Shown here: positions 1 through 32,219 of the stretch, piece after piece | Numbering within the stretch: the first letter of the stretch is position 1 | How the letters are laid out: each line of letters starts with the position of its first letter | Notes under the pieces: model-generated | Told to the model about the DNA's origin: nothing | What the model saw: only the letters and a program-made list of their open reading frames with translations | Database searches by the model: none | Source: Actinomycetota bacterium | GTDB lineage: Bacteria > Actinomycetota > Acidimicrobiia > Actinomarinales > Actinomarinaceae | Assembly (NCBI GenBank): GCA_027729925.1 | Contig: JAQCEB010000004.1 | Location: 1-60,630, forward strand | Length of the DNA: 60,630 bases | Direction of reading: 5' to 3' | Translations under genes and position numbers: made by a program

Positions 1-600
1 CAAATAGTTAGTAGGAATTTACTACCTCCTGCTCCAGATATTTTGGATAATTGCATTTACTCAATAAACCTAGAAATCTTTCCTTACACAGCAAATGAAG
101 TTATTTGTAGTAGTGATTTAAATGGGTTTTCCAATGAATTTTATTGGTATGATGCTTTAATAATTGACAACAGCCAAGTCGCTATTAAGTACTGGGATAG
201 AAATTCAAATATTGAGAAAGAATTACTTATTGATATAGACACTGGAAAAATTATTACAGAGAATCCTAGTGAAAAATATTCTTACGATGAGCAAAATAAA
301 AATATTCTTGGTGAAATTTTAATAGATCCATGGCAATCTAGTAGTCAAACTAGAGAAGTTGCAATCTACTATCAATTAGGTTCAGAAATTATTGAAGTTT
401 ATAAATCAAAAGCTCCAACTAATTACTACTTCAATAATTTGAAATGGTCCCCAAATGGTGAAAATATAATTGCTAGTGATAGTGAGAATAACTTAATTTT
501 GTTCTCAAAATCTAAGCTTTTTAATCCACATAAATTAAATTTTTCTATAGAAAATATCGAAAATAAAGAATTCATAAGATTAATTGGATGGTCCAATTAA
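1..600 (+). CDS. Hypothetical protein, 5'-truncated; C-terminal part resembles a WD40/TolB-like beta-propeller
   Basis: Frame 1 is open from base 1 (QIVSRNLLPPAPDILDNC...) to TAA at 598-600. 'NLKWSPNGENIIAS' is a propeller-blade-like motif. Confidence 0.55.
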   Translation, partial: QIVSRNLLPPAPDILDNCIYSINLEIFPYTANEVICSSDLNGFSNEFYWYDALIIDNSQVAIKYWDRNSNIEKELLIDIDTGKIITENPSEKYSYDEQNKNILGEILIDPWQSSSQTREVAIYYQLGSEIIEVYKSKAPTNYYFNNLKWSPNGENIIASDSENNLILFSKSKLFNPHKLNFSIENIENKEFIRLIGWSN

Positions 601-1553
601 TTAAATTCTTTACTTGGTCTTACGCCTAACTCACTTATTACATGTGCTGCACTTTTATTAGCTATATGTACAGAATCCTCCATTGATAAACCTGATTGTA
701 ATCCGTACAAATAACCAGCCGCAAAGAAATCTCCCGCTCCAGTCTTATCAATTACATTTGTTTCCATTGCTGGAAAATAATATTTTTCACCTAATTCAAC
801 TACGACTGCACCTTTTGGCCCAAGTGTGCATATTAATTGATCAACATTAGAAAAGTTATCAACAAAAAAAGTTATTGCATTTTCGATATTGTCTTTTTGT
901 GTTAGGGAAATTAGTTCTTCTTCGTTTGTAAATACGTAGTTTATATTATTCTTAATCAGTTTAATAAAACTTTCTCTATGAGCCTCAACACAAAAAACGT
1001 CTGAGAGTGTTATTGCGTTTTTACCACCACTCTTAGTATTAATTTTTGAAGCATAGAGAAATGCTTCTTTACTGGATGGTTTATCCCAAAGATAACCTTC
1101 CATGTATAACAAATTAGATTTCTTTATAACTTCTTCAGAAATATCTTCTTTAGATAATAATTCTCCTGCACCTAAATATGTGTTCATAGTCCTTTCACCA
1201 TCAGGTGTAACGAAAATGGCACAAAGTCCGGTTTGTTTACTTCCATCTTCAAAAACTGTTAGATCAACTAGGCCAGATTCAGCCAAGCTTTTTTTAAACT
1301 GGATACCTAATTCATCATTAGAAATTTTACCTATGAAACCAGCTTCACCTCCAAGTTGAGCTACCCAATAGGCTGTATTTGCAGCTGAACCACCTGCTTC
1401 AAGGGTAGGTGTTTTCATATTAGCTTGGAGAAAATTAGACCTCTCTTTATCAATTAAAGTCATTCTTGCCTTATTTAATTGGAGTGATTCAATTACTTCA
1501 TCATCAACAAACTGCAATGAGTCAACCATTGCATTACCTATGCAAATTATCAT
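597..1553 (-). CDS. PfkB-family carbohydrate/nucleoside kinase, adenosine kinase-like
   Basis: GGSAAN substrate motif and DKTGAGDFFAAG anion-hole motif, 318 aa. Confidence 0.85.
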   Translation of the reverse strand: MIICIGNAMVDSLQFVDDEVIESLQLNKARMTLIDKERSNFLQANMKTPTLEAGGSAANTAYWVAQLGGEAGFIGKISNDELGIQFKKSLAESGLVDLTVFEDGSKQTGLCAIFVTPDGERTMNTYLGAGELLSKEDISEEVIKKSNLLYMEGYLWDKPSSKEAFLYASKINTKSGGKNAITLSDVFCVEAHRESFIKLIKNNINYVFTNEEELISLTQKDNIENAITFFVDNFSNVDQLICTLGPKGAVVVELGEKYYFPAMETNVIDKTGAGDFFAAGYLYGLQSGLSMEDSVHIANKSAAHVISELGVRPSKEFN

Positions 1554-1903
1554 TAGATTATTTGTCCAGATGAACCTTTGGAGTTAACAATGTTGTCCGT
1601 GACACTTAACAAAGCTTTCATACCACCATCTAAGTTTGAAACTTTAAAATCATTAGAAAGTAGGTAATTTGAAACTCTAGAAGAACGAGCTCCAGAACGA
1701 CAAACTATAATATAATCATTATCTTTAGAAAATTTACTTAAATTTTCTTCGATCGTACCCATTGAAATATGAGTTGCATCTCTGTGATGTCCTGCTTCCC
1801 ATTCATCATCTTCTCTAACATCTATCAACAAATATCCATTAGATATTAGGGTTTCAACTTCACTTGCGTCTACGGATGGAACTTTGTTAAAACCGAATAC
1901 CAC
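1553..1903 (-). CDS. Single-domain rhodanese (sulfurtransferase)
   Basis: LIDVREDDEWEAGH and active-site loop CRSGARS. Confidence 0.9.
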   Translation of the reverse strand: MVFGFNKVPSVDASEVETLISNGYLLIDVREDDEWEAGHHRDATHISMGTIEENLSKFSKDNDYIIVCRSGARSSRVSNYLLSNDFKVSNLDGGMKALLSVTDNIVNSKGSSGQII

Positions 1904-2726
1904 TTTGCCTCTGTTTCAATCTTTTGACTCTTTCTTCTGTTGGTGGATGAGTTGAAAATAGCTTTCCGATACTTTTACCTGAAAAAGATTTTAATGGATC
2001 CGAAATAAAAAGTTGACTAACAGCTGGATTAATATTCATAGGAATTTTTGAAAATTTATCTATTTTTTCTAGAGCAGATGCAAGCGCTAAAGGATTACCA
2101 GAGACTTCAGCACCTGTAGCATCAGCGCCAAATTCTCTAGTTCTAGAGATGGCCATTCTAATAATTATAGAAGCTATTGGAGCAGCAATAAATGCAAGAA
2201 GAGCAAAAGCTGGATGAATATTCCTATCTCTTCTTTCTCCAACACCCCAAAAAGCCATTCTTGACATAAATGATATTGCTGCTGCTAACATTGCTGCAAT
2301 ACTTGACACAAGAATGTCTCTATTTTTTATATGTGATAGTTCATGAGCCAATACTCCTTCAAGTTCATCTCTATTTAGTAGTTTCAAAATGCCAGTTGTA
2401 ACTGCTACTTTAGAATTTTTTGGATTTCTTCCAGTAGCAAATGCATTTGGCTGATCACTATTAATCACATACAATTCTGGCATTGGCATCTTTTCTTTTT
2501 GTGTTAAATAAAAAACTATATCCTTTACTTCTTGAAATTGACCATCCTGAATTTTTACTGCTCTTGTTGATTTTATTGCGAGAGAGCCACTGAAAAAATA
2601 CATAATGAAATTAAATAAAAAAGCAAAAATCAATGAAGAAAATAGATCAAAACCCAATAATGTAGCAGTAAAAAGCACAATCAAAGTTAAGAATGTTAAC
2701 AACATAGTGGTTTTAATAAAATTCAT
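1887..2726 (-). CDS. htpX: Zinc metalloprotease HtpX (M48)
   Basis: PNAFATG, HELSH zinc motif, REFGAD, FSTHPP, with TM segments. Confidence 0.95.
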   Translation of the reverse strand: MNFIKTTMLLTFLTLIVLFTATLLGFDLFSSLIFAFLFNFIMYFFSGSLAIKSTRAVKIQDGQFQEVKDIVFYLTQKEKMPMPELYVINSDQPNAFATGRNPKNSKVAVTTGILKLLNRDELEGVLAHELSHIKNRDILVSSIAAMLAAAISFMSRMAFWGVGERRDRNIHPAFALLAFIAAPIASIIIRMAISRTREFGADATGAEVSGNPLALASALEKIDKFSKIPMNINPAVSQLFISDPLKSFSGKSIGKLFSTHPPTEERVKRLKQRQSGIRF

Positions 2727-2750: not shown

Positions 2751-3776
2751 TTATACCTTTTTCGCATTGAGAACATAAAAACCTCCTAAGCCATTTAGAT
2801 TTAAAATAGTTTCTAATCCAAGAATCTTATCTTGAAGTTTTAGTTGCTCCAATCCTTCTGAGGAATTTTTCAAATTTTTTAAAGTTTTTAATAAAGTAAC
2901 TGCACCGCAACTTTCCAAAAATTTTTTTTGAGTGATGATAGAGGCTTTATATCCATATTTTATAAATAAATTTTGCAGTGCTGAAAAATTAATATCATAA
3001 GTTATATCAACTTCACCAAAATTTAATATTGGATCTCCTGCTAGGTGGTGGTTCTTGTATGTTCGTAATAATGACGTGTACTTTTTATTTATTCTCTCTT
3101 TTTGGAAATACCCGTAATCAAAAAACATAAAATTATTAGGTTGGAAATTTTTAATTAGCTTAATTATAAATTCTTGAATATTAGTTTGAACTTCAATTTC
3201 AAATTCTTCGCAACCAGAAATATTGTTAGATGTTAACCATTTTTTATTTTTGTCTCTAATTGAAAGAAGTTCATATCGAAAATTTTCATTTGAAATATCT
3301 ACACCTTTTTCGAACCATTTATTATTTTTATAAATTGCTATTGAACATGGTATGTTATCTAATATTTCATTCCCAAAAATTAAGTCTATTGTTTGATTTT
3401 TCAATTTGGAGGGAGAGTCGACAATTTGAATGCCAAGGTTTTGTAGTTCTTTTCTTGCAGTTGCAGACCTTTCCACAGCTAAAAGTCTACTCTTCTTTTC
3501 ATCAGTGAAATTTTTAATTAATGAACCTGTACCACTACCAAGCTCCAATAATGTACCTCTTATGTTATTTACTTCTATCCAATTTTCTATTAAATTACCA
3601 AAATACTCTGAAACTTCGGGTGAAGTTAAAAAATCTCCTGTTTTTTTTGATCGAGTTTTTTCATTATTGAAAAATCCATATTTAGAATATAATGACTCTT
3701 CCATAAATTGGTCAAAATATAACGATTTAGATTTATATTTTTCTATTAAGTATTTTTTTTTGTCTTTACCAATCAA
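2751..3776 (-). CDS. SAM-dependent methyltransferase, NDUFAF7/MidA family
   Basis: FDQFMEESLY, GDFLTSPEVS, ELGSGTG (SAM motif), NEILDNIP, DYG, DITYDINF. Starts 2 nt after the nuoN stop. Confidence 0.85.
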   Translation of the reverse strand: MIGKDKKKYLIEKYKSKSLYFDQFMEESLYSKYGFFNNEKTRSKKTGDFLTSPEVSEYFGNLIENWIEVNNIRGTLLELGSGTGSLIKNFTDEKKSRLLAVERSATARKELQNLGIQIVDSPSKLKNQTIDLIFGNEILDNIPCSIAIYKNNKWFEKGVDISNENFRYELLSIRDKNKKWLTSNNISGCEEFEIEVQTNIQEFIIKLIKNFQPNNFMFFDYGYFQKERINKKYTSLLRTYKNHHLAGDPILNFGEVDITYDINFSALQNLFIKYGYKASIITQKKFLESCGAVTLLKTLKNLKNSSEGLEQLKLQDKILGLETILNLNGLGGFYVLNAKKV

Positions 3777-3778
3777 AA

Positions 3779-5257
3779 TTAATTATTAAGAAAAGTAGAA
3801 GCTATATCACCTAGATTGCTAAATATTCCTGGAAAAATTCCCGACAATACTGTAATAAAAACTGTTATAAGACCAACAACCTTTATTGGATTTTCAATTA
3901 ACATATTTTTCTCAGAGTATTCTTGAACTTGTTCATCCATCCATATAATCTTTGAAATTCTTGCATAATAAACTAATGAAATTACAGCGTTAACTGCACC
4001 GACAATACCAAGAATGACGCCGATTGTTTGGCCAGAACCCAATAAGCTCCTAAATACAACAAACTTTGCAAACCAACCGCCAAGAGGGGGAACCCCAGCT
4101 AGAGAAAAAAAGAATAAAGTTGTTAATACGCCAATAAATGGTGAAGATTTTGCCACTCCTGACCATTTATATATGTCTTCAGATCCTGTAAATCTAATCA
4201 GAACCTGAACACATAAAAATGCCCCTAAATTCATAAATGCATAAATTATTAAGTAAGTTACACTTGCAAAAATTCCATCTTCATAATTTCCAGTGATACC
4301 TGAAACAGCTATTGGTGAAATAATGAATCCAGCTTGTGCAATTGAAGAGTAAGCTAGCAACCTCACAGGGTTACTTTGTTGAAGAGCAACCAAATTACCT
4401 AGTGTCATGGTCATACCAGCTACTAGAAATAAAATTATTCCCCAACTACTTCCTGAAATGCCGTAAACAGAAGTCATTAATAAAATAAGGGCCACGAATC
4501 CAGCAGCTTTTGAACTTACTGACAAATAAGCAGTAACAGGGAGTGGAGCTCCTTCGTAAGTATCAGGTGCCCATGAATGAAATGGAACAGTTGAAACTTT
4601 AAAACCTAATCCTGAAATTACCAATACTGCGCTTAATAGAACAACTGGAGAATTTTCCAAAGAGCTCGTCAAAATTTGTTTTGAAATCTCGTTAAATAAT
4701 AAATTTCCTGTTAATCCATATAGAAGAGAGAAACCATAAAGAATTAAAGAAGCAGATAGGACTCCAAGTAAAAAGAATTTAATAGCACCTTCATTTGATT
4801 TTCGATCACCTTTTTTCCATCCTGAAAGTAAAAACATTGGAGTTGAAGCTAATTCGATGCCGATAAAAATAGTCAATAAATCTCTGGACGAACAAATAAC
4901 TAAGGCACCGAGTAGAGAACTTAGTAATAAGAAATAGTATTCACCTTGATAGTATTTGTCACTCTCAATAAAATTAATCGACAATAAAAATGTTATGTAG
5001 GTAATAATTATGAACAAACCTTTTAATATGATTGAAAATTTATCAATAACATAACTGTCTTGGAATACGTATATAGCAGATGTGTAGCTTATCCAATGGA
5101 TTAACAAAGGTACTAGTGAAACTAAGGTTCCCAATAATGCAAATGCAGCAATTAGATATTTGGATTTACGTGGTAAAAGTAAATCTAAGAATATAGAAAT
5201 TACTAATGTAGCAATAATTACTAATTCTGTTGAGATTGCATAATAATTTATAGTAAT
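3779..5257 (-). CDS. nuoN: NADH-quinone oxidoreductase subunit N (11-subunit cluster), proposed ATT start
   Basis: FKVSTVPFHSWAPDTYEGAP, RLLAYSSIAQAG. The frame stays open 41 codons upstream of the track's TTG (ITINYYAISTELVII...) to ATT 5257, 6 nt after GGAGG. Confidence 0.9.
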   Translation of the reverse strand: MTINYYAISTELVIIATLVISIFLDLLLPRKSKYLIAAFALLGTLVSLVPLLIHWISYTSAIYVFQDSYVIDKFSIILKGLFIIITYITFLLSINFIESDKYYQGEYYFLLLSSLLGALVICSSRDLLTIFIGIELASTPMFLLSGWKKGDRKSNEGAIKFFLLGVLSASLILYGFSLLYGLTGNLLFNEISKQILTSSLENSPVVLLSAVLVISGLGFKVSTVPFHSWAPDTYEGAPLPVTAYLSVSSKAAGFVALILLMTSVYGISGSSWGIILFLVAGMTMTLGNLVALQQSNPVRLLAYSSIAQAGFIISPIAVSGITGNYEDGIFASVTYLIIYAFMNLGAFLCVQVLIRFTGSEDIYKWSGVAKSSPFIGVLTTLFFFSLAGVPPLGGWFAKFVVFRSLLGSGQTIGVILGIVGAVNAVISLVYYARISKIIWMDEQVQEYSEKNMLIENPIKVVGLITVFITVLSGIFPGIFSNLGDIASTFLNN

Positions 5258-5259
5258 TT

Positions 5260-6828
5260 TTAACCTCCAAAAGCTTTAAAAATTAAATCAACAACAGCAT
5301 CATTTGTAGCACCAAAAATTAACTTAGGAAATATTCCTATTAGAACAGTCAGAATTACTAGAGGAATCCATGCTGCTAATTCGTAATTGTCAGCGTCATG
5401 AAGCTCTTTATCTTTCCACTCGTCTGCAGGTTCACCTAAATTAACTCTCTGTAACATCCAAAGTAGGTACCCTGCTGTTAGTACTGTTCCTATTGCACCA
5501 GCAACCATTGATGACCTAAAGATTACAATATTCAAGCCTTGGAGTGGGTTATAAGCTCCAAGTAATGCCATAAATTCTCCCCAAAAACCTGCGAGTCCTG
5601 GTAAACCTAATGAAGCCATTGCAGTAAAACCAAGCAAGGCACCGGTTTTTGGAAGCAACTTCATATTGCCACCTAGTCGTCCCATATCTCTTGTATGGTA
5701 TGTGTGAGACATAGAGCCGGTTAAGAAAAATAGTAGTCCTGTTATTACTCCATGTGCCACCATTCCAATTATTGCTGCATTTATTCCAACTGATGTTAGT
5801 GAAGCTATTCCAAGCATTACAAAACCCATGTGACCTACAGAAGAAAATGCAATTAATCTTTTCAAATCAGTCTGTGCTAAGCAAGCAAGTGAACCATAAA
5901 TAATCCCTATTGCTGAAAGTATTGCTATTGCAGGAGCCCAAGCTTTTGCTTGCTCTGGAAGAATTGGAATAGCAATTCTTATAAAACCATATGACCCAAG
6001 TTTTAATAATATAGCAGCTAAAAGAACAGAGCCAACTGTAGGTGCAGCTGTATGTGCATCTGGTAACCAAGTATGTAGTGGCCACATTGGAACTTTAACT
6101 GCAAAACCTAAAAACAGAACAGCAAAAACTAGAGTGGCAAATGTTCCTGTAAAAGCACCTGTACTTCCAATTTCAATTAATTCAGGTATGCTAAATGTCT
6201 TATTCCCTCTATAGTACAAACCTAAAAATCCAAGCAACATAAATGCAGATCCAAATAAGGTAAATACAAAAAACTTAATGCTTGCATATAACCTTGTTTC
6301 AATTTCTTTTTTTAACCCAGAGACTGACCTAATAGTTTTATCACCCCAAATACCAATCATGAAATACATTGGCAAAAGAACTATTTCAAAAAATACAAAG
6401 AACAGAATTAAATCCAATGCTACAAAAGTTCCATTCATCCCAGTTTCAAGTACCAGAATCAAAGCAAGAAAACCTTTTGGACTTTTTGGTTCAGGTAAAT
6501 GCTCTAGAGAATATATTATTGCTAAAACTGAAATAAATGTTGAAAGCACCAATAGAGGAAGAGAAATTCCATCAATGCCAATTTCATAATTAGCATTTAT
6601 GCTTTCGATCCAAGTAGCTTTGCTTCCTAATTGAAGTTGTGATGCTTTAGAAAAATCAAACTCAAGTAAAACCAGAATGCTCAAAATAAAAGTTACCACT
6701 GAAGACAGTAAAGCAACTCCTTTTATTACACTTTCGTATGGTTTAGGTATGAATAAAATTAAAAGTGCACTTATAATTGGCAAGAAAACAACCGCACTTA
6801 ATCCCAAACCGTTTGATAATATTTCCAC
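5260..6828 (-). CDS. nuoM: NADH-quinone oxidoreductase subunit M (11-subunit cluster)
   Basis: FEIVLLPMY, AVKVPMWPLHTWLPDAH, KRLIAFSSVGHMG. Confidence 0.95.
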   Translation of the reverse strand: MEILSNGLGLSAVVFLPIISALLILFIPKPYESVIKGVALLSSVVTFILSILVLLEFDFSKASQLQLGSKATWIESINANYEIGIDGISLPLLVLSTFISVLAIIYSLEHLPEPKSPKGFLALILVLETGMNGTFVALDLILFFVFFEIVLLPMYFMIGIWGDKTIRSVSGLKKEIETRLYASIKFFVFTLFGSAFMLLGFLGLYYRGNKTFSIPELIEIGSTGAFTGTFATLVFAVLFLGFAVKVPMWPLHTWLPDAHTAAPTVGSVLLAAILLKLGSYGFIRIAIPILPEQAKAWAPAIAILSAIGIIYGSLACLAQTDLKRLIAFSSVGHMGFVMLGIASLTSVGINAAIIGMVAHGVITGLLFFLTGSMSHTYHTRDMGRLGGNMKLLPKTGALLGFTAMASLGLPGLAGFWGEFMALLGAYNPLQGLNIVIFRSSMVAGAIGTVLTAGYLLWMLQRVNLGEPADEWKDKELHDADNYELAAWIPLVILTVLIGIFPKLIFGATNDAVVDLIFKAFGG

Positions 6829-6837
6829 TTTTTCCTC

Positions 6838-8838
6838 CTAAATAATAAACAGAATTAACAAACTAATTGTTACAACACCAGCTAAAAACAACATTAAATA
6901 TTGTTGGGTTTTGCCTGTTTGTAATAATTTAACTTTTCCACCAAAGCTGTCAGTGCTGGTAGAAGAGGCATTTAAAAACTTATCAATACCTTTTTGATCA
7001 AAATTATTATAGACAATTTGACCAAGAAAAGAAGCAGCTAAACCAAATGAATTAATAATTCGATCTAAAAAATTCGTATTAATTCTATCAACAGCATTTG
7101 CAATTGTTAATTTAGTTGGATTAATTAAATACTTGAAATAGAAATGATCTAAGTAATATTTATTTTCTAGAACAGTCCAAATTGGCTCTACTTTAATTAA
7201 TTTGTCACCTTTATCAGCAGATCCCTGAAGTTGATAAACAAAATAACCTAAACCTATTCCGAGTAAGCCAGCAATTAATCCAGAAAACAGAGCTGTGTAA
7301 TCAAAACTTTCAGGATGATATTCATTAATTTTATTTGCTCTTGTTGTTACCCATGTAGTAAAGCCTGTATACACCCCTGGAATGTTTACCCAACCTGCTC
7401 CAATTGCAAATACTGCAAGAAACATTAATGGGACAGTCATCATTTTATCTGACTCATGTGGATGACCGTGGCCTCTATACTCACCCAAGAATGTTAATGC
7501 TACTGCTCTAGTCATATAGAAAGCCGTAACAAAAGCGCCAATAATTGAGATAACTAAAAAAGTAGTTTCACCTTCATGATTGAGTGATGCTAAAATCTCA
7601 TCTTTTGAAAAGAATCCTGCAAACGGTGGTAAGCCAGCTAGAGCTACTGTCCCAATTATAAAAGTTATAAAGGTTCTAGGCATATATTTTCTTAAACCAC
7701 CCATCTCTAACATACTATTTGTGTGGACAGCATGAATAACTGATCCTGCTCCTAAAAATAAAAGTGCTTTAAAAAAAGCATGAGTCCATAAATGAAAAAG
7801 TGATGCTGTATAAGCTCCAGATCCTATTGCAGCAACCATATAGCCTAACTGACTAACAGTCGAATATGCTAAAACTTTTTTTAAATCATCCTGAACAACT
7901 GCAATAAGTCCAGCTGTTATTAAAGTAATTACTCCAAATAACATAACTATGTCCAACGCTTCATGAGCCATGGCTTCGTAAAAAGGAAACATTCTTGCAA
8001 GTAAATAAACACCTGCTGTTACCATTGTTGCTGCATGCATCAGAGCTGAAACAGGAGTTGGACCTGCCATGGCATCTGGCAACCAAACATGTAATGGAAA
8101 TTGAGCACTTTTACCCATAGCACCAATAAACAATAAAACGCCTGCGACAAACGCAACATTTTTAATATCTTCGTAATCGTGAGTTGATTGATAGAGTATT
8201 TCTGAAATTCTTAATGTCCCAGTATTTAAAGCTAAAATTATGATTCCAATCATTAATCCTATATCAGCTATTTTGTTTGTTATAAAAGCTTTCATTGCAG
8301 CAGATGAGTTGTCTTTAGTCTCCCAATAATGACCTATAAGCAAATATGAACAAACTCCAACTAATTCCCAACCAATAAGAATTTGAATTAATGTAGGTGA
8401 AGATACAAGAACTAACATGCTTCCAGCAAACAAAGTAAGAGAAGTAAAGAAAAACGTATATCTAACTTCACCTTTCATATAATTTGTTGCATAAATAAAT
8501 ACCAAAAGTGCAACAGTGCCAACAACAAAGTACATCATAATTGAAAGTCCATCAACAACCCATCCAAATTCAATATCAAAAGTTCCAATATTGCCAACTA
8601 CAATAAAAAATTCATTTACTATGCCTTCTGTAATGTGTTTATAAAGTAGTGCAGAGCTATAGAAAAAAATTGATCCTATTGTTGCTAAAGCAATTTCTGC
8701 ACCTTTATAAGGTAGTTTTTTTCCAAAGAAAGTAATGATTAAAGCTGAAATAAATGGAAGCACTACTAATATCCAAGCATATTCTGCAAAGACACCGCCA
8801 TCACCATACGAAAGTTTAGATTCAGCTAGAAGGTTCAC
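6838..8838 (-). CDS. nuoL: NADH-quinone oxidoreductase subunit L (11-subunit cluster)
   Basis: GKSAQFPLHVWLPDAMAGPTPVSALMHAATMV, HAFFKALLFL. Confidence 0.95.
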   Translation of the reverse strand: MNLLAESKLSYGDGGVFAEYAWILVVLPFISALIITFFGKKLPYKGAEIALATIGSIFFYSSALLYKHITEGIVNEFFIVVGNIGTFDIEFGWVVDGLSIMMYFVVGTVALLVFIYATNYMKGEVRYTFFFTSLTLFAGSMLVLVSSPTLIQILIGWELVGVCSYLLIGHYWETKDNSSAAMKAFITNKIADIGLMIGIIILALNTGTLRISEILYQSTHDYEDIKNVAFVAGVLLFIGAMGKSAQFPLHVWLPDAMAGPTPVSALMHAATMVTAGVYLLARMFPFYEAMAHEALDIVMLFGVITLITAGLIAVVQDDLKKVLAYSTVSQLGYMVAAIGSGAYTASLFHLWTHAFFKALLFLGAGSVIHAVHTNSMLEMGGLRKYMPRTFITFIIGTVALAGLPPFAGFFSKDEILASLNHEGETTFLVISIIGAFVTAFYMTRAVALTFLGEYRGHGHPHESDKMMTVPLMFLAVFAIGAGWVNIPGVYTGFTTWVTTRANKINEYHPESFDYTALFSGLIAGLLGIGLGYFVYQLQGSADKGDKLIKVEPIWTVLENKYYLDHFYFKYLINPTKLTIANAVDRINTNFLDRIINSFGLAASFLGQIVYNNFDQKGIDKFLNASSTSTDSFGGKVKLLQTGKTQQYLMLFLAGVVTISLLILFII

Positions 8839-8846
8839 TTATTTTC

Positions 8847-9152
8847 CTACCATTTCATTAAATCAAATTCATTAATATTAGCTGTTTGTCTGTTTCTAAA
8901 AAGCATCAAGACTATAGCAAGCCCTATCCCAACTTCAGCAGCTGCAATAGTAATAATGAAAATAGAAAATATCTGTCCACCCATCATTGTGTCTGACAAC
9001 ATAGCATCGAATAAAACAAAATTTATATTTACAGAATTAAGAATCAGTTCGATTGATAAAAGAACCATAACTGCATTTCTTCGAACTAAGATTCCATAAA
9101 TTCCAAGTGAAAAAAGTGCGGCAGCAACAATTAATACAGGTTGAACTATCAT
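8847..9152 (-). CDS. nuoK: NADH-quinone oxidoreductase subunit K (11-subunit cluster)
   Basis: SIELILNSVN, AAAEVGIGLAIV, 101 aa. Confidence 0.95.
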   Translation of the reverse strand: MIVQPVLIVAAALFSLGIYGILVRRNAVMVLLSIELILNSVNINFVLFDAMLSDTMMGGQIFSIFIITIAAAEVGIGLAIVLMLFRNRQTANINEFDLMKW

Positions 9153-9667
9153 ATTTGGTCTTCGTTAATTAGAGCATCGTCTTTTCTGGCAAGTGTTATA
9201 CCTCCTATAAGTGCAGCAAGTAAAACAAACGAAACTATTTCAAATGGAAAAACAAATCTTGTTAATAAAATTTCACCCAACAATTGTGTGGAAGATGCCT
9301 GATCTATTGTAATCTCACCACTAAATCCACTAATTAAAATAAAAGAAAAAAGTAGGAAAATTGCAAAAGCTAATATAGCACCTGCTTTTTTGTTTTTATC
9401 ATTATCTAATTCAGCATTCTTACCAAGTGGAGCTCTCGTTATCATAATTCCGAATAAAAAGAGAACTATTACTGCACCTATGTATACAAGTATTAATACT
9501 AGGGCGACAAACTCAGCAGAAAGTAGTAAGAATAATGTTGCAGTTAGCGCAAGTGTAAATACTAATGAAACTGCGGCGTGAATAACATTTGTTGTGGTTA
9601 CTACTCTTAATGCTGTTGAAAGTAGCAACAGTAGAACAAAATAAGTGACTATTTCATAAATTTCCAT
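9149..9667 (-). CDS. nuoJ: NADH-quinone oxidoreductase subunit J (11-subunit cluster)
   Basis: LVYIGAVIVLFLFGIM, FPFEIVSFVLLAALIG. Confidence 0.93.
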   Translation of the reverse strand: MEIYEIVTYFVLLLLLSTALRVVTTTNVIHAAVSLVFTLALTATLFLLLSAEFVALVLILVYIGAVIVLFLFGIMITRAPLGKNAELDNDKNKKAGAILAFAIFLLFSFILISGFSGEITIDQASSTQLLGEILLTRFVFPFEIVSFVLLAALIGGITLARKDDALINEDQI

Positions 9668-9669
9668 TA

Positions 9670-10155
9670 TTAATTCTCTAGACCTTCTGGTTCAGGAACT
9701 GTTTTTAACCATTCATCGAGCCTTGCTTTATTATGAAGCATATCACCCATATTAAATTCAGAATACTCATATTCGGGTGACCAAAATAAAGCATCGAATG
9801 GACATACTTCAACACAAATTCCACAGTACATACATAATGCATAATCAATATCAAACCTATCAAGCACTGCACGACTTCTTTGTCTTCCACCGGGAGTGGA
9901 AGGTGGCTGTAATTCTTTGTGACCTTCAATGTAGATACACCAATCAGGACATTGTCTAGCGCATAGCATACAACTAGTGCATGCTTCTTGATCTAATGCA
10001 ATCACTCCTCTAGCTCTTGGGGCTACTTTTTCCTTTTCGAATGGATAATTGACATTTGGATTTGAATGAAATGGTGATAATGTTTTAAACATATTTACTA
10101 TCACAATTTTCATGCCAATTATAAAGCCAGGAATTTTTGGTCTAAAGGTTTTCAT
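9670..10155 (-). CDS. nuoI: NADH-quinone oxidoreductase subunit I (11-subunit cluster)
   Basis: Two CxxCxxCxxxCP motifs. Start moved to ATG 10155, which overlaps the nuoH TAA. Confidence 0.93.
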
Positions 10156-11126
10156 TACAACACCACTTTCAATACTGCAGTTATTAGTATATTTAATAAT
10201 GAAGCAGGTATTAAGAATTTCCAAGCAAGGTTTTGCAATTGATCTTCCCTAAATCTAGGAAACGACCACCTAACAGCAACCAATATAAACCCTAATATTA
10301 GAGTTTTTGTAATTAGTGATATTGGTCCGTATATATTGACCCACTCAGTTGGAATGAAAGGTAAGTGATATCCTCCAAGAAACAAAGTAGAAGCTACTGC
10401 ACATAAAACAAACATGCTCATGTATTCTGAAATGTAAAATATTAAAAATCTTATACCTGAATATTCAGTCATAAAACCCATTGTTAGTTCAGATTCACCA
10501 ATTGGCATATCAAATGGAACTCTCATCATTTCTGCTGTAGCTGCAATCATAAAAATTAGAAAAGCAACTATTTGCCCACTAAATGCAAAAGGTACTCCCC
10601 ATTCAATTTGTTTTTCAACAATTCCAACTAGAGACATTGTTTCAGCTTGAATAACGACTCCAACAACAGCCAAAATTAAAGGGAGCTCGTATGCAATTAA
10701 TTGGCCAGCAGCCCTTAACCCTCCCATGAGAGAGTATTTGTTAGCGGATGACCAGCCAGCTGTTAAAACTCCAATAGTTGAGAGTGAGCTAATTGCTAAT
10801 GCAAAAAATACTCCAAGTTCTAAATCAACAACAACCAAAGTTGGGCTTAATGGGACAACGGCAAAAAGAGAAACTGCTGAAACAACTACATACGCTGGTG
10901 CCCATTTAAATACTGGCCTATCGACATCAGTTGGAATAATGTCTTCTTTCTGAACAAATTTAAGAATTTCAGCTAAAGGAAATATAAATCCCCTTAAACC
11001 TACATGTAAAGGACCTGGACGCCTTTGCATCCATGAAGCTCCCTTAACATCCATTATGGTAAAAATTACTGCACCATTTAATGCAGCTAAAGCAACAAAT
11101 CCTACTTTGATTAATACATCTGTCAT
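10155..11126 (-). CDS. nuoH: NADH-quinone oxidoreductase subunit H (11-subunit cluster, divergent motifs)
   Basis: [41 protein letters not shown]. Confidence 0.93.
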
Positions 11127-12316
11127 CTATCAACATCTCCTAATACAAAGTCAAGACTACCCATTATTGCAATCAAATCTGGTAAAAGTGCTCCTTCCAG
11201 CATTACTGGAAGAATTGAAACATTGCTAAAAGAAGCTGTTCTAACTTTTAATCTATAAGGTCCTAATCCCCCTTCGGATACAATGTAATAACCCATCTCA
11301 CCTTTTGGATTTTCTGCTCTTACATAAGTTCTTCCTGCAGGAACTTTTATAACTTTTGGAACTTTTGCCTGTAAAGGACCTGAGGGCATATCATCTATTG
11401 CTTGTAAAACAATTTTTGCTGACTCAACCATTTCTCTAGTTCTTACATCCCAACGATCATAGCAATCACCGTTTTGCCCAATTGGTATTTCAAATTCAAA
11501 TTTTTCATAAGGTAGATAGTCAGTTTGAGTTCTTAGATCTGATTTTACCCCTGAAGCTCTAAGAATTGGACCCGATACACCATATGCTTCTGCTGTTTCT
11601 TTTGAAAGAACGCCTACATTCTTAGTTCTCTTATGAAAAACTTCATTTCCTCCAATTAAATTTTGAAATTTATCAGCTGCTTCTATTACTTTTTCCATAG
11701 CTAACTTAGTATCTCTATAAAAACCAACTGGTAAATCTTGGATATTCTTTTTTGTTGTTGGACCAGAACCAGCAGCAGGTTTAACGCCACCAATTCTATT
11801 GAAGTTTGGATGGAATCTCCCTCCAGTTACAGACTCAATAAGATCTAAGACTCTTTCTCTATCTTCCATTGCATAAAAAATTGGAGTTAATGCGCCAACT
11901 TCTAGCGCGTAAGCACCATTGAATACAAAGTGGGAACAAATCCTTGCCATTTCAGTAAGAATTAATCTAATTTGCTTTGCTCTTTCTGGTGCTTCAATCT
12001 CCATCAGTCTTTCTGTGCCGGCTATAAATGGAATCTCATTAGAAAATCCTGCAACCCAATCAATCCTATTAACTAATGTTGTTATTTGAGGATAAGTTCT
12101 TACTTCGGCAAGCTTTTCATACCCTCTATGCATATACCCCAATACAGGCTCTACGTTGTATACTTTTTCTCCGTCAACTTTTGCAACTAATCTGAGAACT
12201 CCATGAGTAGATGGATGCTGCGGACCAATATTTAAAGTCATATCCTCAGTTTCAATTTCAACTGATACAGAGGCTTCAGAAATACTTTGAAAATTACGAG
12301 GATCTATTGTGTTCAA
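11123..12316 (-). CDS. nuoD: NADH-quinone oxidoreductase subunit D (11-subunit cluster)
   Basis: NIGPQHPSTHGVLRL, GYMHRGYEK, C-terminal GDVDR. No hydrogenase CxxC Ni ligands. Confidence 0.95.
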   Translation of the reverse strand: MNTIDPRNFQSISEASVSVEIETEDMTLNIGPQHPSTHGVLRLVAKVDGEKVYNVEPVLGYMHRGYEKLAEVRTYPQITTLVNRIDWVAGFSNEIPFIAGTERLMEIEAPERAKQIRLILTEMARICSHFVFNGAYALEVGALTPIFYAMEDRERVLDLIESVTGGRFHPNFNRIGGVKPAAGSGPTTKKNIQDLPVGFYRDTKLAMEKVIEAADKFQNLIGGNEVFHKRTKNVGVLSKETAEAYGVSGPILRASGVKSDLRTQTDYLPYEKFEFEIPIGQNGDCYDRWDVRTREMVESAKIVLQAIDDMPSGPLQAKVPKVIKVPAGRTYVRAENPKGEMGYYIVSEGGLGPYRLKVRTASFSNVSILPVMLEGALLPDLIAIMGSLDFVLGDVDR

Positions 12317-12318
12317 AA

Positions 12319-12855
12319 TTAAGAATTCTCCTCATCAAAACCTTCAGGCATGCCTTCTACGTCTACATCTCCAGGCCAAGGTTTAACTTCACGACTTATT
12401 AATTCAAATGATTTAAGCATTGGATTACCTTCGTATCCATCTGGAAGATACAATTTTGTTAGATTAGGATGGCCTTCAAAAGTAATACCAAACATTTCAT
12501 AAGCTTCTCTTTCATGCCAATTAGCTCCAACAAATACATTAACTAGAGTTGAAATTGATGGATTTAGTTTAGAGATAAATGTTGAAATTGTAACTAGATT
12601 TGAACTATTAACACTAGAAAGGCAACTCATGATTTCAAATGAGGGATTAACAACTTCTTTAGGTTTATCTCCCACAGAAACTTCATTATCCCAATCTATT
12701 GCTGAAAGCCATGAGAAAAATTTAAGATCAAATTTATCACGAAGAATTTCATGTGTAGATATCCAATTTTCAACATTTACTTTTATTAAAATAGTCTCAA
12801 ACTCATATGAGACATCATTGAAATCTTCTTTAAGTTGATTTAAAAAATCTTCCAT
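12319..12855 (-). CDS. nuoC: NADH-quinone oxidoreductase subunit C (11-subunit cluster)
   Basis: ANWHEREAYEMFGITFEGHP. Start set at ATG 12855. Confidence 0.92.
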   Translation of the reverse strand: MEDFLNQLKEDFNDVSYEFETILIKVNVENWISTHEILRDKFDLKFFSWLSAIDWDNEVSVGDKPKEVVNPSFEIMSCLSSVNSSNLVTISTFISKLNPSISTLVNVFVGANWHEREAYEMFGITFEGHPNLTKLYLPDGYEGNPMLKSFELISREVKPWPGDVDVEGMPEGFDEENS

Positions 12856-12856
12856 G

Positions 12857-13354
12857 TTATAAAGGTTCAACTTGCTTTTCGACCCACTTAGATTTCATAT
12901 CTTCTCCTTTGATTTTTTTCTGAAGAAGTATGATACCTTCCTGTAATGCCTCAGGTCTTGGAGGGCAACCAGGAACATAAACATCTACTGGAATAAGTTG
13001 ATCTACTCCTTTAGTTACCGAATATGAGTCCCAATAAGGACCACCACTATTTGAACAAGAGCCCATTGAAATTACATACTTAGGTTCAGGCATTTGATCA
13101 TATAATCTTTTCACTGAAGGTGCCATCTTGTCAGTAACAGTTCCGGCAACAATCATTAAATCTGCTTGTCTCGGAGAAGCTGGAAGTGGAATAATTCCAA
13201 GTCTCATAAAGTCATGCCTTGGGCCGCTAACAGCCATTACTTCTATAGCACAACATGCTAAACCAAATTGAAAATACCATAATGAATATGCTCTAGCCCA
13301 GTTAAATATAGATGAGATAGGCTTTGGTAAACCAAACTTGTCAACTACTCCCAC
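12857..13354 (-). CDS. nuoB: NADH-quinone oxidoreductase subunit B (11-subunit cluster)
   Basis: [26 protein letters not shown] (N2 ligands). Confidence 0.95.
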
Positions 13355-13710
13355 TTTAAAACATCCTTCCTAATTGCATAAATTAATCCGATAAGCAATA
13401 TAAAGATAAATATAAACATTTCAATTAATCCAAAATATCCGAGTTTTTCAAGATTAATTGCCCAGGGGAAAATGAATACTGCTTCAACATCAAAAATAAC
13501 AAATAATAGTCCAAAAATATAATACCTGACATAAGTTTGACTCCATCCTGAACCAACTGGATCTACTCCACATTCATATGTAGTAAGTTTTTCTGCGTAC
13601 GGTTTATTCGGTCTTAATACGGACGCAAGTCCAACTAAAAGCATCATAAAAAATAATCCGAACGAGAGTACCGCTCCCACAGTTACATAATTCTGAAAAT
13701 AAGAAATCAT
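13345..13710 (-). CDS. nuoA: NADH-quinone oxidoreductase subunit A (11-subunit cluster)
   Basis: [19 protein letters not shown]. Confidence 0.95.
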
Positions 13711-25783: not shown

Positions 25784-25915
25784 CTATTCTTTATTTTCTT
25801 TTCTTTGCTTACTTCTTAACCATGTTAGTAGTAAAGCTGGTACAAGGAAATATAGTAATTCGTCCCATCCACCTTGATGCTGAAACGTGGGTGGTGGAAT
25901 ATATTTAATTAACAT
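25784..25915 (-). CDS. Unannotated 43-aa single-pass membrane protein coupled to nuoN
   Basis: MLIKYIPPPTFQHQGGWDELLYFLVPALLLTWLRSKQRKENKE. ATG overlaps the nuoN TAA (TAATG). TM helix plus basic tail. Confidence 0.7.
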   Translation of the reverse strand: MLIKYIPPPTFQHQGGWDELLYFLVPALLLTWLRSKQRKENKE

Positions 25916-27387
25916 TAAATATAATTTTCTACGACCCAGCGAGTTAGATTTATCAGTACATTTGGAAGAATACCTAGTAACAAAGTTACTACTGCAAGTA
26001 AACCAACTGAAACTTTGTCTGAAGTCGAAATATCAATTTTTGATAAAGGATTTTCATTTTTTTCAATTGATGCAATCCAAATTGGTCTTAAGTAAAAATA
26101 AAATCCAACAACAGTAGATAGCATCAAAACAACAACAAGTAAATATTTTTCATATGACCATAAATTAGTTATGAGTATGAATTTTGATACAAAACCACTT
26201 GTTAATGGCATTCCAGCTAAACCAAACATAAAAATAGAAAAACTAATAGTTAGAAATTTATTATTCAAAAACAATCCAGATAGTTCACCTATTTCAAAAT
26301 TTGAGGTAAGTTGCCCTTTAATAATTGAAAATATAGAAAATATTCCAAGAAGCTGAACAATATATGAAAACAAATAAAATAAAGACGCGCTTATTCCAAA
26401 CACACCTGAAACCATTCCAGATAAAATAAAACCTGATTGAATAACTCCACTATAAGCAATAAGACGTTTTAAATCCGTTTGGTTAGTAGCAAATAATGCA
26501 CCTAATAATGCTGATAAAAGTACAACGATAGTAAAAAATAATTCGAACTTATCTAGAATAAAACGAATTGAAATAGCTGAAATTCGAGCTAACACTATAA
26601 AAGATGCCGCCTTAGCAGTAGTTGCCATATAACCCACAAAACCTGTTGGTGAACCTTGATAAACATCTGGTGCCCAAGCTTGAAATGGCGCTGCAGCTAC
26701 TTTGAACAGTAATCCGACAATTATAAAAATCATTCCAATTAAAGTTGTTAAAGGTACATTTTGTGCGCCAATAAAATTTATTGCAATACTTGTTTCATAT
26801 ACACCACTAATTGAAAGCGATACATACAATAGTGCAACACCATAGATTAATACGCATGAAGCTAGTGAACCTAATAGAAAATACTTTAATGAAGCTTCAT
26901 TGCTTAATTTGTCTCCTCGATTTAGTCCAGCAAGTGCATAAAGGCTTATTGATCCAATCTCCAATCCAATAAAAAGCATTATAAAATTTTCGGAATCGAT
27001 CATAAGCAAAAATCCAGAAGCAGACATTAAAATAAGAATTATTGCCTCTGTGGTTTTACCTTCAAGGCTTGCAGATGTCTTCCAAAATGAATTAAATGTG
27101 AACAATAAAATTAAGCCAATTAAGACATTTCCAAATAATGAGAACTCATCTAATAATATTTTTTCAGAAAAATATGATGAAACTCCGTCTGTTAAATACA
27201 AACCAAATTTAAGAAATATAAAAAAGTTTGTTAACAAAATCCCTAAAAAAGTAATTAATTTTTTCAAAACATCTGATGATGGAATAGTGATTGTAAAAAA
27301 AAGTAAAATTAGCGCAGTTAATACTAAAACAACTGTTGGAGATATCACTATAAAATTAAAACCTATTATTTCAGATATAGATATCAT
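25915..27387 (-). CDS. nuoN: NADH-quinone oxidoreductase subunit N (14-subunit cluster)
   Basis: EASLKYFLLG, FKVAAAPFQAWAPDVYQGSP. Confidence 0.95.
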   Translation of the reverse strand: MISISEIIGFNFIVISPTVVLVLTALILLFFTITIPSSDVLKKLITFLGILLTNFFIFLKFGLYLTDGVSSYFSEKILLDEFSLFGNVLIGLILLFTFNSFWKTSASLEGKTTEAIILILMSASGFLLMIDSENFIMLFIGLEIGSISLYALAGLNRGDKLSNEASLKYFLLGSLASCVLIYGVALLYVSLSISGVYETSIAINFIGAQNVPLTTLIGMIFIIVGLLFKVAAAPFQAWAPDVYQGSPTGFVGYMATTAKAASFIVLARISAISIRFILDKFELFFTIVVLLSALLGALFATNQTDLKRLIAYSGVIQSGFILSGMVSGVFGISASLFYLFSYIVQLLGIFSIFSIIKGQLTSNFEIGELSGLFLNNKFLTISFSIFMFGLAGMPLTSGFVSKFILITNLWSYEKYLLVVVLMLSTVVGFYFYLRPIWIASIEKNENPLSKIDISTSDKVSVGLLAVVTLLLGILPNVLINLTRWVVENYI

Positions 27388-28871
27388 TTACCACCCACAA
27401 AATAAAATATTAACTCACTTAAATATTCTGACTCCTCAGAAACTAAATTTTCTAATTTACCAGGAAATATTCCAATTAATAACATAAGAATTAGCAGAGG
27501 CATTACAGAAATAATTTCCCTGTAGTTTAAATCTAATAAAGTGTTATTTTCTTCATTTACTATAGTTCCAGTAAACATTCTTTGGTAAGCCCAAAGCATA
27601 TAAATAGCAGCAAGAACTACGCCAAATGCAGAAATGATAGATAAAACTTTAAAAGCTTCAAAGCTGCCCATTAAAATTTTAAATTCACCTACGAAACCAT
27701 TAAGTCCAGGTAAACCTATTGAAGCAAATGAAGTAAAAAGGAATATCCCTGCATAAAGTGGCATTCTTAACTTTAAACCACCAAAGTCACTTATTTTTCT
27801 TGTATGTCTTCTGTCATATATAAAACCAACAAGCATAAATAATGCGCCAGAAGTAATCCCATGGTTAACCATTTGAATTATTGCACCTTCAATACTTAAA
27901 TATGCACCAGCTGAAATACCAAGCATTACAAATCCCATATGACTAACTGAAGAATATGCAATTAGTTTCTTAATATCTATTTGTGCAATAGCTACAATAG
28001 CTCCATAAATAATTCCCACTACAGACAAACAAGCTATTAAAAATCTAAACTGTATAAATCCTTCGGTAAAGAAGGGTATTGACACACGAAGTATTCCGTA
28101 TGCTCCAACTTTTAACAAAACTCCAGCAAGTAAGATACTTCCCGCTGTTGGAGCTTCAACGTGAGCATCTGGTAACCAAGTATGTAGTGGGAATAATGGT
28201 ACTTTTATTAAAAATCCTATAGTGAATAATGCAAAAAGAACTTTCGATTGTGATGAACTAAAACTTAATTGGGATAAGGTATTGTAATCCAAAGCTAGTC
28301 TGCCATTAACTGAATAACTTAATAGGCCTGTGTAAATAGTTCCTATAAATATAAAAATAGAACCGAATACTGTATAAATTATAAATTTTATAGTTGCATA
28401 GCGTCTATTTTCACCTCCCCATATACCCATAAGAAAGTACATAGGAATTAATATTGCTTCAAAAAAAATAAAAAGAGAAACTAAGTCTCCACTAATGAAA
28501 ACTCCATTAATTGCAAAATGGAGAGTTAAAATTGATCCAATAAATCCTTTACTCTGAGAATGACTATCAGAGACAGAAAGTATTGAAACGGTGACTAGTA
28601 ATGCACTTAATACAAGTAGTAAAATTGACATTCCAGACAATCCAAAATTTAAATCTAATCCATAAAGACTGATCCATTCAAATGAAGCGTAAGTTTTAAA
28701 ATTACCTGTAAGTTTTGAATCAAAAAGTAAATAGACAGCTTGTGTTAGTGAAATTAAAGTAAACAAAATACTTACAGGTCTGAAAAGTTCAACTCTATTT
28801 TTTGGAATAATGAAAATAAAGAATGATCCAAAAAGTGGAACTAATAACAATGAAAAGATTACAGCATTCAT
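27384..28871 (-). CDS. nuoM: NADH-quinone oxidoreductase subunit M
   Basis: FEAILIPMY, IKVPLFPLHTWLPDAHVEAP. Confidence 0.95.
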   Translation of the reverse strand: MNAVIFSLLLVPLFGSFFIFIIPKNRVELFRPVSILFTLISLTQAVYLLFDSKLTGNFKTYASFEWISLYGLDLNFGLSGMSILLLVLSALLVTVSILSVSDSHSQSKGFIGSILTLHFAINGVFISGDLVSLFIFFEAILIPMYFLMGIWGGENRRYATIKFIIYTVFGSIFIFIGTIYTGLLSYSVNGRLALDYNTLSQLSFSSSQSKVLFALFTIGFLIKVPLFPLHTWLPDAHVEAPTAGSILLAGVLLKVGAYGILRVSIPFFTEGFIQFRFLIACLSVVGIIYGAIVAIAQIDIKKLIAYSSVSHMGFVMLGISAGAYLSIEGAIIQMVNHGITSGALFMLVGFIYDRRHTRKISDFGGLKLRMPLYAGIFLFTSFASIGLPGLNGFVGEFKILMGSFEAFKVLSIISAFGVVLAAIYMLWAYQRMFTGTIVNEENNTLLDLNYREIISVMPLLILMLLIGIFPGKLENLVSEESEYLSELIFYFVGGK

Positions 28872-30772: not shown

Positions 30773-31081
30773 TTAACCTCTAGATAAATTTAAAACATCA
30801 ACTGATGCTGATGACTGTTTCCTGAAAATTGAAACTATAATTGCTAATCCAACTACAACTTCTGCAGCGGCTACAACAAGTACGAAAAATACAGCAACTT
30901 GACCATCAATAGTTCCAAAATGTTTGGAAGCAGCAATAAAAGTTAAATTTACAGCATTAAGCATTAATTCGATGCACATAAACATAATTAAGGCATTTCT
31001 TCTAATCATCATGCCAAAAAAACCTATTGAAAAAAGTACAGCTGCAAGGCTTAGATACCAATCTGTTGTTACTTCAAACAT
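30773..31081 (-). CDS. nuoK: NADH-quinone oxidoreductase subunit K
   Basis: [21 protein letters not shown]. Start set at ATG 31081. Confidence 0.95.
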
Positions 31082-31601
31082 GCTGCTTCCTTTTTTTTGT
31101 ATCATACGCTAGAGCAATCGCTGCTGTTGTTGCGACAATTAATAAAATTGAGATGATTTCAAATGGTAATATCCAAGCAGTAAAAAGAGTTCCAGCAATT
31201 AATTGCGGGGTTCCTTCTATATCAAATTGAACAGCTTCAAACCACAAATCCCAAGTAAAGTTTGAATTTATAGCAACATAGATAAGTAAGGAAATTAAAA
31301 CTAGTAACACACCTGAAACTAAAAGTGTTTGACCTTTTATTGATTCTTTAGATTGTTCCTTTTTGTCTACTCCTATCATCATAATTACAAATAAAAAAAG
31401 TGTCATTACTGCTCCTGCGTATACAAGCATCTGAACCATTGCAACGAAAGTTGCATTTAAAGTTATATAAATTATTGCAAGGGAAATCAAAGTCAAAACC
31501 AAGCCCATAGCATTATGTACAGGATTTTGAGCAAAAATTACTATTAATGCTCCAATCAAGACAAGAGAAGCTGGTACAAGAAAGAGCAAAAATTCAACCA
31601 T
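31074..31601 (-). CDS. nuoJ: NADH-quinone oxidoreductase subunit J
   Basis: [29 protein letters not shown]. Confidence 0.95.
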
Positions 31602-32216
31602 TTATTCCTCTTCTAAATGCTGGCCCTTTTCGGGTTCTTTTTTACCATAACCTAAAGATCCAGACCAATTAATTACATTTTGGTAATTTGGATTACCATT
31701 AGATGAAGTTGCCCTCATCCAGCCATCAAAGTTTTGAAGATCTTTTTCGTTTGTTAAATTAGTTTTCTCCTCATGTGACCTAGGCTTACCCGAATCGTCT
31801 ACCACTAATACTGATTTATCAAAAATAGCATCAGCCCTATTTGTTACACTCATTTCAAATAGAGAACTCATGGTTATTGCTTCTGTAGGACATGCTTCAA
31901 CACAAAGTGCGCAATATATACAACGCAACATATTTATCTCATAGATAAATCCATATCTCTCTCCAGGGCTTACTGGATTATCTTCAGGGTTTTCTTCTCC
32001 TCTTACATATATACATTGTGCTGGACAGACTCCTGCGCATAGTTCGCAACCTATGCATTTTTCCATTCCATCTTCATAACGATTTAAAACATGTCTGCCA
32101 TGAAACCTTTGAGGTTTTTCTCTAAATTGTTTTGGATATTTATCTGTAACAGATTTTTTAAATAATTCTTTAAAAGTAACCTTAAGACCCTTAAACAAGC
32201 CAAAATTTTCACTCAT
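31602..32216 (-). CDS. nuoI: NADH-quinone oxidoreductase subunit I
   Basis: CIGCELCAGVCP and CIYCALCVEACP. Confidence 0.95.
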   Translation of the reverse strand: MSENFGLFKGLKVTFKELFKKSVTDKYPKQFREKPQRFHGRHVLNRYEDGMEKCIGCELCAGVCPAQCIYVRGEENPEDNPVSPGERYGFIYEINMLRCIYCALCVEACPTEAITMSSLFEMSVTNRADAIFDKSVLVVDDSGKPRSHEEKTNLTNEKDLQNFDGWMRATSSNGNPNYQNVINWSGSLGYGKKEPEKGQHLEEE

Positions 32217-32219
32217 AAT

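Follow-up and report, generated by a model that had tools for sequence, protein, structure and literature searches.

The midA gene in the window analysed here, a stretch of 60,630 nucleotides (nt) from the genome of a Candidatus Actinomarina bacterium (Actinomarinales, Acidimicrobiia), was confirmed to encode a methyltransferase of the MidA/NDUFAF7 family that depends on S-adenosylmethionine (SAM). Its product is probably the maturation methylase of Arg64 in NuoD1, a subunit of the complex I variant lacking the module for oxidation of reduced nicotinamide adenine dinucleotide (NADH), whose operon midA follows. This reading is supported by comparative genomics: the gene neighbourhood in two different architectures, the co-loss with the complex and the phyletic correlation are indirect evidence for a functional association of MidA with NuoD. 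The family, fold, conserved residues, gene order and phyletic pattern of the gene are established in this work.

The genome under study comprises 0.92 Mb and is 88% complete, and the window is AT-rich with a GC content of about 0.27-0.36. Loci titled 'Candidatus Actinomarina' or 'Actinomarinales' share 70-97% protein-level identity with it. A previous interpretation of the window made from the DNA letters alone, here called the sequence-only reading, had rightly named an actinobacterium as the source, the class being Acidimicrobiia. Assignment of the open reading frames (ORFs) with Pfam and NCBIfam models revealed two nuo operons, both located on the minus strand like all other features described below. 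Operon 1 (3779..13710) consists of the 11 genes nuoABCDHIJKLMN and possesses no nuoEFG, while operon 2 (25915..40168) contains the full 14-gene nuo set. The midA gene (2751..3776) encodes 341 residues and begins with a TTG codon at 3774-3776, which leaves a spacer of 2 nt to the stop codon (TAA, 3779-3781) of nuoN1. The sequence-only reading had placed the methyltransferase 2 nt behind nuoN, in an operon without nuoEFG whose NuoD carries an arginine that is replaced by threonine in the NuoD of the 14-subunit operon. Re-reading of the sequence returned the same coordinates throughout and the same two codons.

Symmetric dimethylation of the HRGxE arginine (R121 in Yarrowia, R85 in the bovine protein) is known from mammals, yeasts and Paracoccus denitrificans, whereas the residue is unmethylated in Escherichia coli; it is situated approximately 3.7 Å, or roughly 4 Å, from the iron-sulfur (Fe-S) cluster N2 (PMC8042128, PMC3750175). 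Thermus has a threonine at this position, and the space of NDUFS2-R121 is occupied by R83 of the NuoB subunit Nqo6 (PMC8042128, PMC3750175). The methylase of this arginine is NDUFAF7 (PMC3829151, PMC9006661). In the window, the proposed substrate NuoD1 (nuoD1, 11123..12316; PF00346 and NuoD models) reads GYMH-R-GYEK, and the proposed methylation site Arg64 is encoded by AGA at 12125..12127. The site comprises H63-R64-G65-Y66-E67 and is spanned by the peptide EPVLGYMHRGYEK. R64 corresponds to R121 of Yarrowia NUCM if residues 24-64 align without gaps (match of query 24-324 with chain 81-368). In contrast, NuoD2 of the 14-gene operon (nuoD2, 37516..38892; Pfam and NCBIfam models) reads GYLH-T-GMEK, with Thr113 encoded by ACT at 38554..38556 and hence no arginine to methylate.

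A reciprocal swap was found in NuoB. NuoB1 (nuoB1, 12857-13354) carries Thr72 (ACT, 13139..13141) in the sequence VAG-T at the mitochondrial-type position, while NuoB2 (nuoB2, 39303-39764) carries Arg71 (AGA, 39552..39554) in VAG-R. In an equal-length match with chain 2fug_6 (query 5-148, chain 17-160, offset +12), R71 of NuoB2 falls on position 83 of Nqo6, equivalent to the Thermus thermophilus Arg83. Judged from these residues, the 11-subunit enzyme follows the 'mitochondrial' combination of NuoD-Arg with NuoB-Thr, and the 14-subunit enzyme the 'Thermus' combination of NuoD-Thr with NuoB-Arg, so that both known solutions for an arginine beside N2 coexist in one cell. The two NuoD proteins also differ elsewhere: NuoD1 reads VNRIDWVAG (window 11880-12075) where NuoD2 has RMDY, so that the Tyr of the quinone site is replaced by Trp. 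This substitution might give the second complex another acceptor or alter how it works at the quinone site.

Assignment of the midA product to the family is based on profile, sequence and structure comparisons. The ORF matches PF02636 (Methyltransf_28) with 93.8 bits against a cut-off of 23.3, covering profile positions 6-242 of 249, and a scan of the whole 0.92-Mb genome found PF02636 at this one locus only. No NCBIfam model matched the ORF at E<=0.001. Sequence matches in the PDB were 4f3n, Dictyostelium MidA (5ztz) and 1zkd. Modelled with AlphaFold2 from an alignment of 46 Acidimicrobiia sequences, the protein reached a predicted local distance difference test score (pLDDT) of 92 and a predicted template modelling score (pTM) of 0.90. 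The top six Foldseek matches of this model were all MidA/COG1565 structures (5zu0, 5ztz, 4g67, two chains of 1zkd, and 4f3n), with E-values of 7e-21 to 6e-18 and query-normalised TM-scores of 0.73-0.80. The next match followed at E 6e-7 with a TM-score of 0.39, and generic methyltransferases were found at E ~1e-6 with TM-scores of <=0.43. Thus, the membership in the NDUFAF7/MidA family proposed by the sequence-only reading is borne out by both the PF02636 profile and the fold comparison.

The residues expected of an active enzyme were judged by conservation and by the PDB alignments. SAM-binding motif I, L77-ELGSGTGSL-86 (3519..3548), contains G82, G84 and L86, invariant in the 46 Acidimicrobiia MidA sequences, and E78 and G80, nearly invariant in a 16-sequence alignment. 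The family signature G47-DFLTSPE-54 (3615..3638) is invariant in both alignments and matches GDF(I/V)T(A/S)PE in Dictyostelium MidA and in 4f3n; in the model it falls in the one loop of low confidence (residues 43-54). In the 46 sequences, the NExxDNxP, DYG, RTYxxHH and DIT motifs show no or almost no variation across the class.

Public gene calls in Actinomarina mostly give 314-324 residues, for example 317 residues from the internal Met25 (ATG, 3702-3704). No Shine-Dalgarno sequence is visible at the TTG start (3776). However, residues 4-24 are conserved and are modelled with confidence as a helix and a strand, and therefore the long TTG form is preferred; the calls from Met25 are probably too short by 24 residues. 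In two Actinomarina assemblies (L038, 10001-10991; G024:C8:24527-25142), midA is split into two adjacent frames, which may reflect a sequencing error or a pseudogene.

Within Acidimicrobiia, PF02636 was found in 39/41 relatives and in 16/16 genera, and the two assemblies without it are single-cell or metagenome-assembled genomes that are 69-78% complete. With an intact midA ORF in these 39 relatives, a spurious AT-rich reading frame was ruled out. Exactly two NuoD paralogues are present in each of 21 genomes from 16 genera. Every readable D1-type NuoD carries GYMHRG[YK]EK, and its partner NuoB carries VAGT, once VSGT, wherever this subunit was captured. Every readable D2-type NuoD carries GYLHTGMEK, accompanied by VAGR in NuoB in 20/20 cases. 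The combination of HRG and HTG NuoD with midA recurs in every relative examined and is therefore not a matter of chance. Coordinates and tblastn searches on the loci showed adjacency of nuoN1 and midA in all Actinomarina loci with enough flanking sequence and likewise in the majority of the remaining families of the class.

In the sample of 251 Actinomycetota genomes described below, G204 and G256 (both 99% complete) are the sole complete Acidimicrobiia genomes without PF02636. Each contains one NuoD, GYLHTGMEK, and one NuoB, VAGR. Both genomes are therefore devoid of the methyltransferase and of the entire 11-subunit complex alike, while the 14-subunit complex is retained. This pattern bears on whether MidA serves both complexes, for instance by also methylating Arg71 of NuoB2. 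In favour of such a role, the two arginines fill the same space beside N2 (PMC8042128), and nearly all midA-positive Acidimicrobiia hold both complexes. Yet midA is missing from genomes with only the HTG/AGR type: from G204, from G256 and from most of the 122 midA-negative genomes of the sample that have no D1-like NuoD. Conversely, G243 contains midA and, as far as found, D1-type NuoD only, and in no locus examined was midA located next to the 14-gene operon. Service of MidA to both complexes is thus very improbable, and a role for midA in the 14-subunit complex was rejected on the co-loss pattern.

To extend the comparison, we used a sample of 251 Actinomycetota genomes, in which a NuoD was called D1-like at E <= 1e-100 to NuoD1. 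PF02636 is present in 84 of the 251. D1-like NuoD occurs in 75/84 midA-positive genomes and in 45/167 midA-negative genomes; the corresponding Fisher test (p 4e-22) is naive because it ignores phylogeny, and its direction alone is trustworthy. When the motifs were read directly, H-R NuoD was present in 81/84 midA-positive genomes. All 40 of the 40 D1-like NuoD sequences fetched from midA-positive genomes kept the arginine, as YMHR[GA] and once as YLHRS, and the divergent single NuoD of four further midA-positive genomes (G059, G072, G069 and G124) also reads H-R-G. Presence of midA is thus correlated with HRG-type NuoD across the phylum; the lack of such a correlation was among the refuting outcomes named with the sequence-only reading, none of which applied as far as the sequence data reach. 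That reading had also called MidA a 'dedicated' methylase of the complex without NuoEFG. The HTG-only genomes G204 and G256, which lack midA, fit that reading, but the term does not hold absolutely because the same NuoD type occurs without midA in several families.

All motif counts rest on direct reading. A strict DNA pattern, P-x-[ILM]-G-x-x-H-R-G-x-E-K, applied to the 251 genomes was discarded for counting: it was specific, with one control match, but it failed to recover verified HRG genes in which Ser-Ala, Met-Cys or Val-Val precedes the Gly as well as HRA variants. Among 14 named control genomes, PF02636 was found only in Caulobacter vibrioides, Synechococcus elongatus and Haloferax volcanii. 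The latter two contain complex-I-like enzymes without NuoEFG. This hints that the link of PF02636 to module-less complexes is wider than Actinomycetota.

Outside Acidimicrobiia, the association takes a different form. Coordinates often place midA and a D1-like nuoD 0.2-8 kb apart, and for 40 of the 84 midA genes the distance to the D1-like nuoD is no more than 15 kb. Twenty such loci were fetched (L157-L176, 4-20 kb each), and another nuo gene was detected in only one of them, L172, as a nuoC-like match upstream. The orphan nuoD and midA are usually oriented tail-to-tail, and the same genomes usually carry a second, B1-type NuoB elsewhere. In five genomes from families f29, f34, f49 and f53 (L177-L181), the second operon reads nuoA-B-C-H-I-J-K-L-M-N followed by an M48 peptidase gene, with no nuoD; these four families and five further ones possess an arginine-retaining D1-like nuoD beside midA. 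The genes flanking the pair are common only within a family subgroup, and the most distant contexts share nuoD and midA alone.

Four arrangements were distinguished in the phylum: nuo11-midA-M48; an intact nuo11 with midA-M48 elsewhere; nuo10 without nuoD followed by M48, with the nuoD/midA pair elsewhere; and an intact nuo11 with a lone midA elsewhere (family f16). That a displaced nuoD stands beside midA, while M48 is left behind nuoN, would be expected of an enzyme and its substrate. The placement of midA in the operon of the HRG NuoD, noted in the sequence-only reading for this window, extends to most Acidimicrobiia, and elsewhere in the phylum midA accompanies the relocated nuoD of the same type.

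Several observations weigh against methylation of NuoD1 by MidA, and most of them bear on two further explanations of the data. First, the position behind nuoN could simply reflect operon packing in a streamlined genome, with MidA acting mainly on another protein, DNA or RNA. As the median intergenic distance in Actinomarinales is only ~2 base pairs, adjacency in a single genome says little (PMC7771536). In addition, some genomes (G191 and G126) show no linkage between midA and nuo, and in genomes such as G191 the midA-M48 pair is displaced together from an intact 11-gene operon. Sparse signals of N4-methylcytosine and N6-methyladenine (m4C/m6A) have also been reported for Wolbachia MidA in E. 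coli, although this DNA methylation result is preliminary by its authors' own word. However, packing does not fit well with a linkage that lasts where genomes are large and not streamlined and that takes two forms, with midA either behind nuoN or next to an orphan nuoD, nor would another main substrate predict the co-loss with the 11-subunit complex and the strong phyletic association. We therefore consider this explanation unlikely.

Second, the main role of MidA might be to bind NuoD1 as a chaperone or assembly factor without catalysis, with methylation being dispensable or lost. MidA diverges fast, with a within-genus identity of 40-52% compared with 68-77% for NuoN1. Furthermore, families f21, f22 and f59 and parts of f23 and f25 contain D1-like NuoD but no midA, and this NuoD reads HRG wherever the strict pattern matched. 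The complex can evidently be built without MidA in these lineages, and the modification is therefore not obligatory for it. They resemble E. coli in this respect, which has the arginine and no midA and leaves the residue unmethylated. On the other hand, the (near-)invariance of motif I, GDFxTSPE, NExxDN, DYG, RTY and DIT in the 46 sequences is what an active enzyme would show, and the target arginine was kept in every one of the D1-like NuoD sequences read from midA-positive genomes. A mainly non-catalytic role is accordingly judged unlikely.

Three midA-positive genomes show no H-R NuoD. Two of them are ~70% complete; the third, G113 (family f16, L194), is 98% complete and shows only an HTG NuoD and a VAGR NuoB. 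This one clean exception counts against the main reading, but it may be explained by an assembly gap or by recent loss of the second complex. The support for the putative methylation in actinobacteria comes from genomic association. Considering both sides, NuoD1 methylation is still the reading that we regard as likely.

We infer the catalytic act, its site and its timing from the mitochondrial and Paracoccus precedents. MidA would be produced from the 12th gene of the nuo operon that lacks the NADH module, bind SAM and newly made NuoD1, and methylate Arg64; the product would probably be the symmetric dimethyl form known from mitochondria and Paracoccus. It would act on free or early-assembling NuoD1, prior to docking onto NuoB1, and the modified NuoD1 would then join NuoB1 and NuoC1 to form the N2 and quinone module. 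NuoD2 would not be a substrate because of the Thr at the target position; its arginine would be supplied by R71 of NuoB2, corresponding to the Thermus Nqo6-R83 solution.

In comparison with NDUFAF7 and Dictyostelium MidA, which act on Arg85 of NDUFS2 (Yarrowia R121), the actinobacterial protein belongs to the same Pfam family, shares the fold (TM-score ~0.79 to 5zu0) and the signature motifs, and is proposed to target the same HRGxE arginine by N2. It differs in its sequence, with ~20% identity, and in its shorter length (341 residues versus ~400). Unlike NDUFAF7, it is encoded within the operon of its presumed substrate and would serve an NADH-module-less complex of a Gram-positive lineage. 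The bacterial MidA homologues 1zkd (alpha-proteobacterial) and 4f3n/4g67 (Burkholderia) have the same fold. Nqo4 of Paracoccus denitrificans, from a bacterial HRG complex I with dimethyl-Arg, resembles NuoD1. However, the modified residue of Paracoccus is part of the canonical 14-subunit NADH-oxidising enzyme, while the canonical enzyme of Actinomarina lacks this arginine. In those systems, midA is not known to lie within the nuo operon. Thermus thermophilus, with Thr in Nqo4 and Arg83 in Nqo6, shows the same HTG and VAGR pair as NuoD2 and NuoB2, whereas the Actinomarina genome holds both N2 solutions, one per complex.

Streptomyces likewise possesses a second nuo cluster without the N-module, nuo2, described as contiguous 'with the exception of nuoD2' (PMC3765725, PMC8388888). 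The second operons without nuoD in the five fetched cases agree with this remark. In the sampled genomes of Streptomyces size, a separate nuoD lies beside a PF02636 gene, whereas in Actinomarina nuoD has kept its place in the operon, with midA coming after nuoN.

An account of the two nuo clusters of Actinomarinales was given by Lopez-Perez et al. 2020, who do not mention the methyltransferase. Bulzu et al. 2021 (bioRxiv 10.1101/2021.02.01.429150) reported the context of the heliorhodopsin (HeR) cluster C11 in Ca. Actinomarina, listing a unit of HeR, nuoABCDHIJKLMN, NDUFAF7 (K18164/PF02636), htpX, pspE and adenosine kinase, of which NDUFAF7, htpX and pspE were called accessory assembly components. 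The name and position of midA are therefore already in the literature. The retrieved passages of that preprint do not analyse the target arginine, the NuoB swap, the co-loss or the orphan nuoD-midA pair, and none of the literature searched notes the HRG/HTG contrast, the NuoB swap, the co-loss of midA with the 11-subunit complex or the orphan pair. The enzyme is of a known kind; its lineage and its partner complex are new. A 2025 paper (PMC12455994) states that what bacterial MidA homologues do has been deduced by in silico means only. An alpha-proteobacterial or proteobacterial origin of the enzyme is put forward in a review and in the title of Shahul Hameed et al. 2018 (Cell Rep), a view with which the actinobacterial distribution of midA does not sit easily.

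Combined, these data lead to a broader proposal, to which we give roughly even credence. Methylation of the NuoD arginine by MidA would be an old trait of the NADH-module-less complex I in Actinomycetota and not a proteobacterial or mitochondrial speciality. The nuoD-midA pair of enzyme and substrate would survive the break-up of the operon, and of the two designs for an arginine at N2, both present in one cell, only NuoD-Arg/NuoB-Thr would recruit MidA. Whether the dimethyl-Arg by N2 serves assembly or tunes the cluster is still debated, and actinobacteria offer a natural control with two complexes per cell, one of them with the target arginine. In cultivable relatives of the Streptomyces type, the compact nuoD-midA pair is separable from the essential NADH-oxidising enzyme. 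The value of the finding lies mostly in this clean, testable bacterial system for a debated modification of complex I; for annotation, it also matters that many public gene models of this protein probably lack its first 24 residues.

Downstream of midA, three further genes complete the unit. An M48 (HtpX-like) peptidase gene (1887..2726; PF01435) follows after 24 nt. Next come a rhodanese gene (1553..1903), which overlaps the M48 gene, and a PfkB kinase gene (597..1553), which overlaps the rhodanese gene; both of these were assigned by profile matches, and this tail of the unit is kept in Actinomarina only. A promoter and terminator scan, uninformative overall, detected no terminator-like site at the nuoN-midA junction and 51 promoter-like sites against 67 expected from shuffled sequence. 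With no terminator at the junction and fewer promoter-like matches than in shuffled sequence, the simplest reading is therefore that nuo operon 1, midA and the downstream genes form one long transcription unit.

Across the phylum, an M48 (HtpX-like) gene follows midA or nuoN of the NADH-module-less operon (L177-L181, L184 and many of L039-L100), and it stays with the genes of the membrane arm where nuoD and midA have relocated. This peptidase may be a quality-control or maturation protease of the complex. In four Acidimicrobiia loci without nuo genes upstream (L069, L075, L077 and L094), NuoF-like (40-43% identity) and NuoG-like (28-29%) genes are situated ~2-5 kb upstream of midA; they may belong to a formate dehydrogenase or to the diaphorase module of a hydrogenase.

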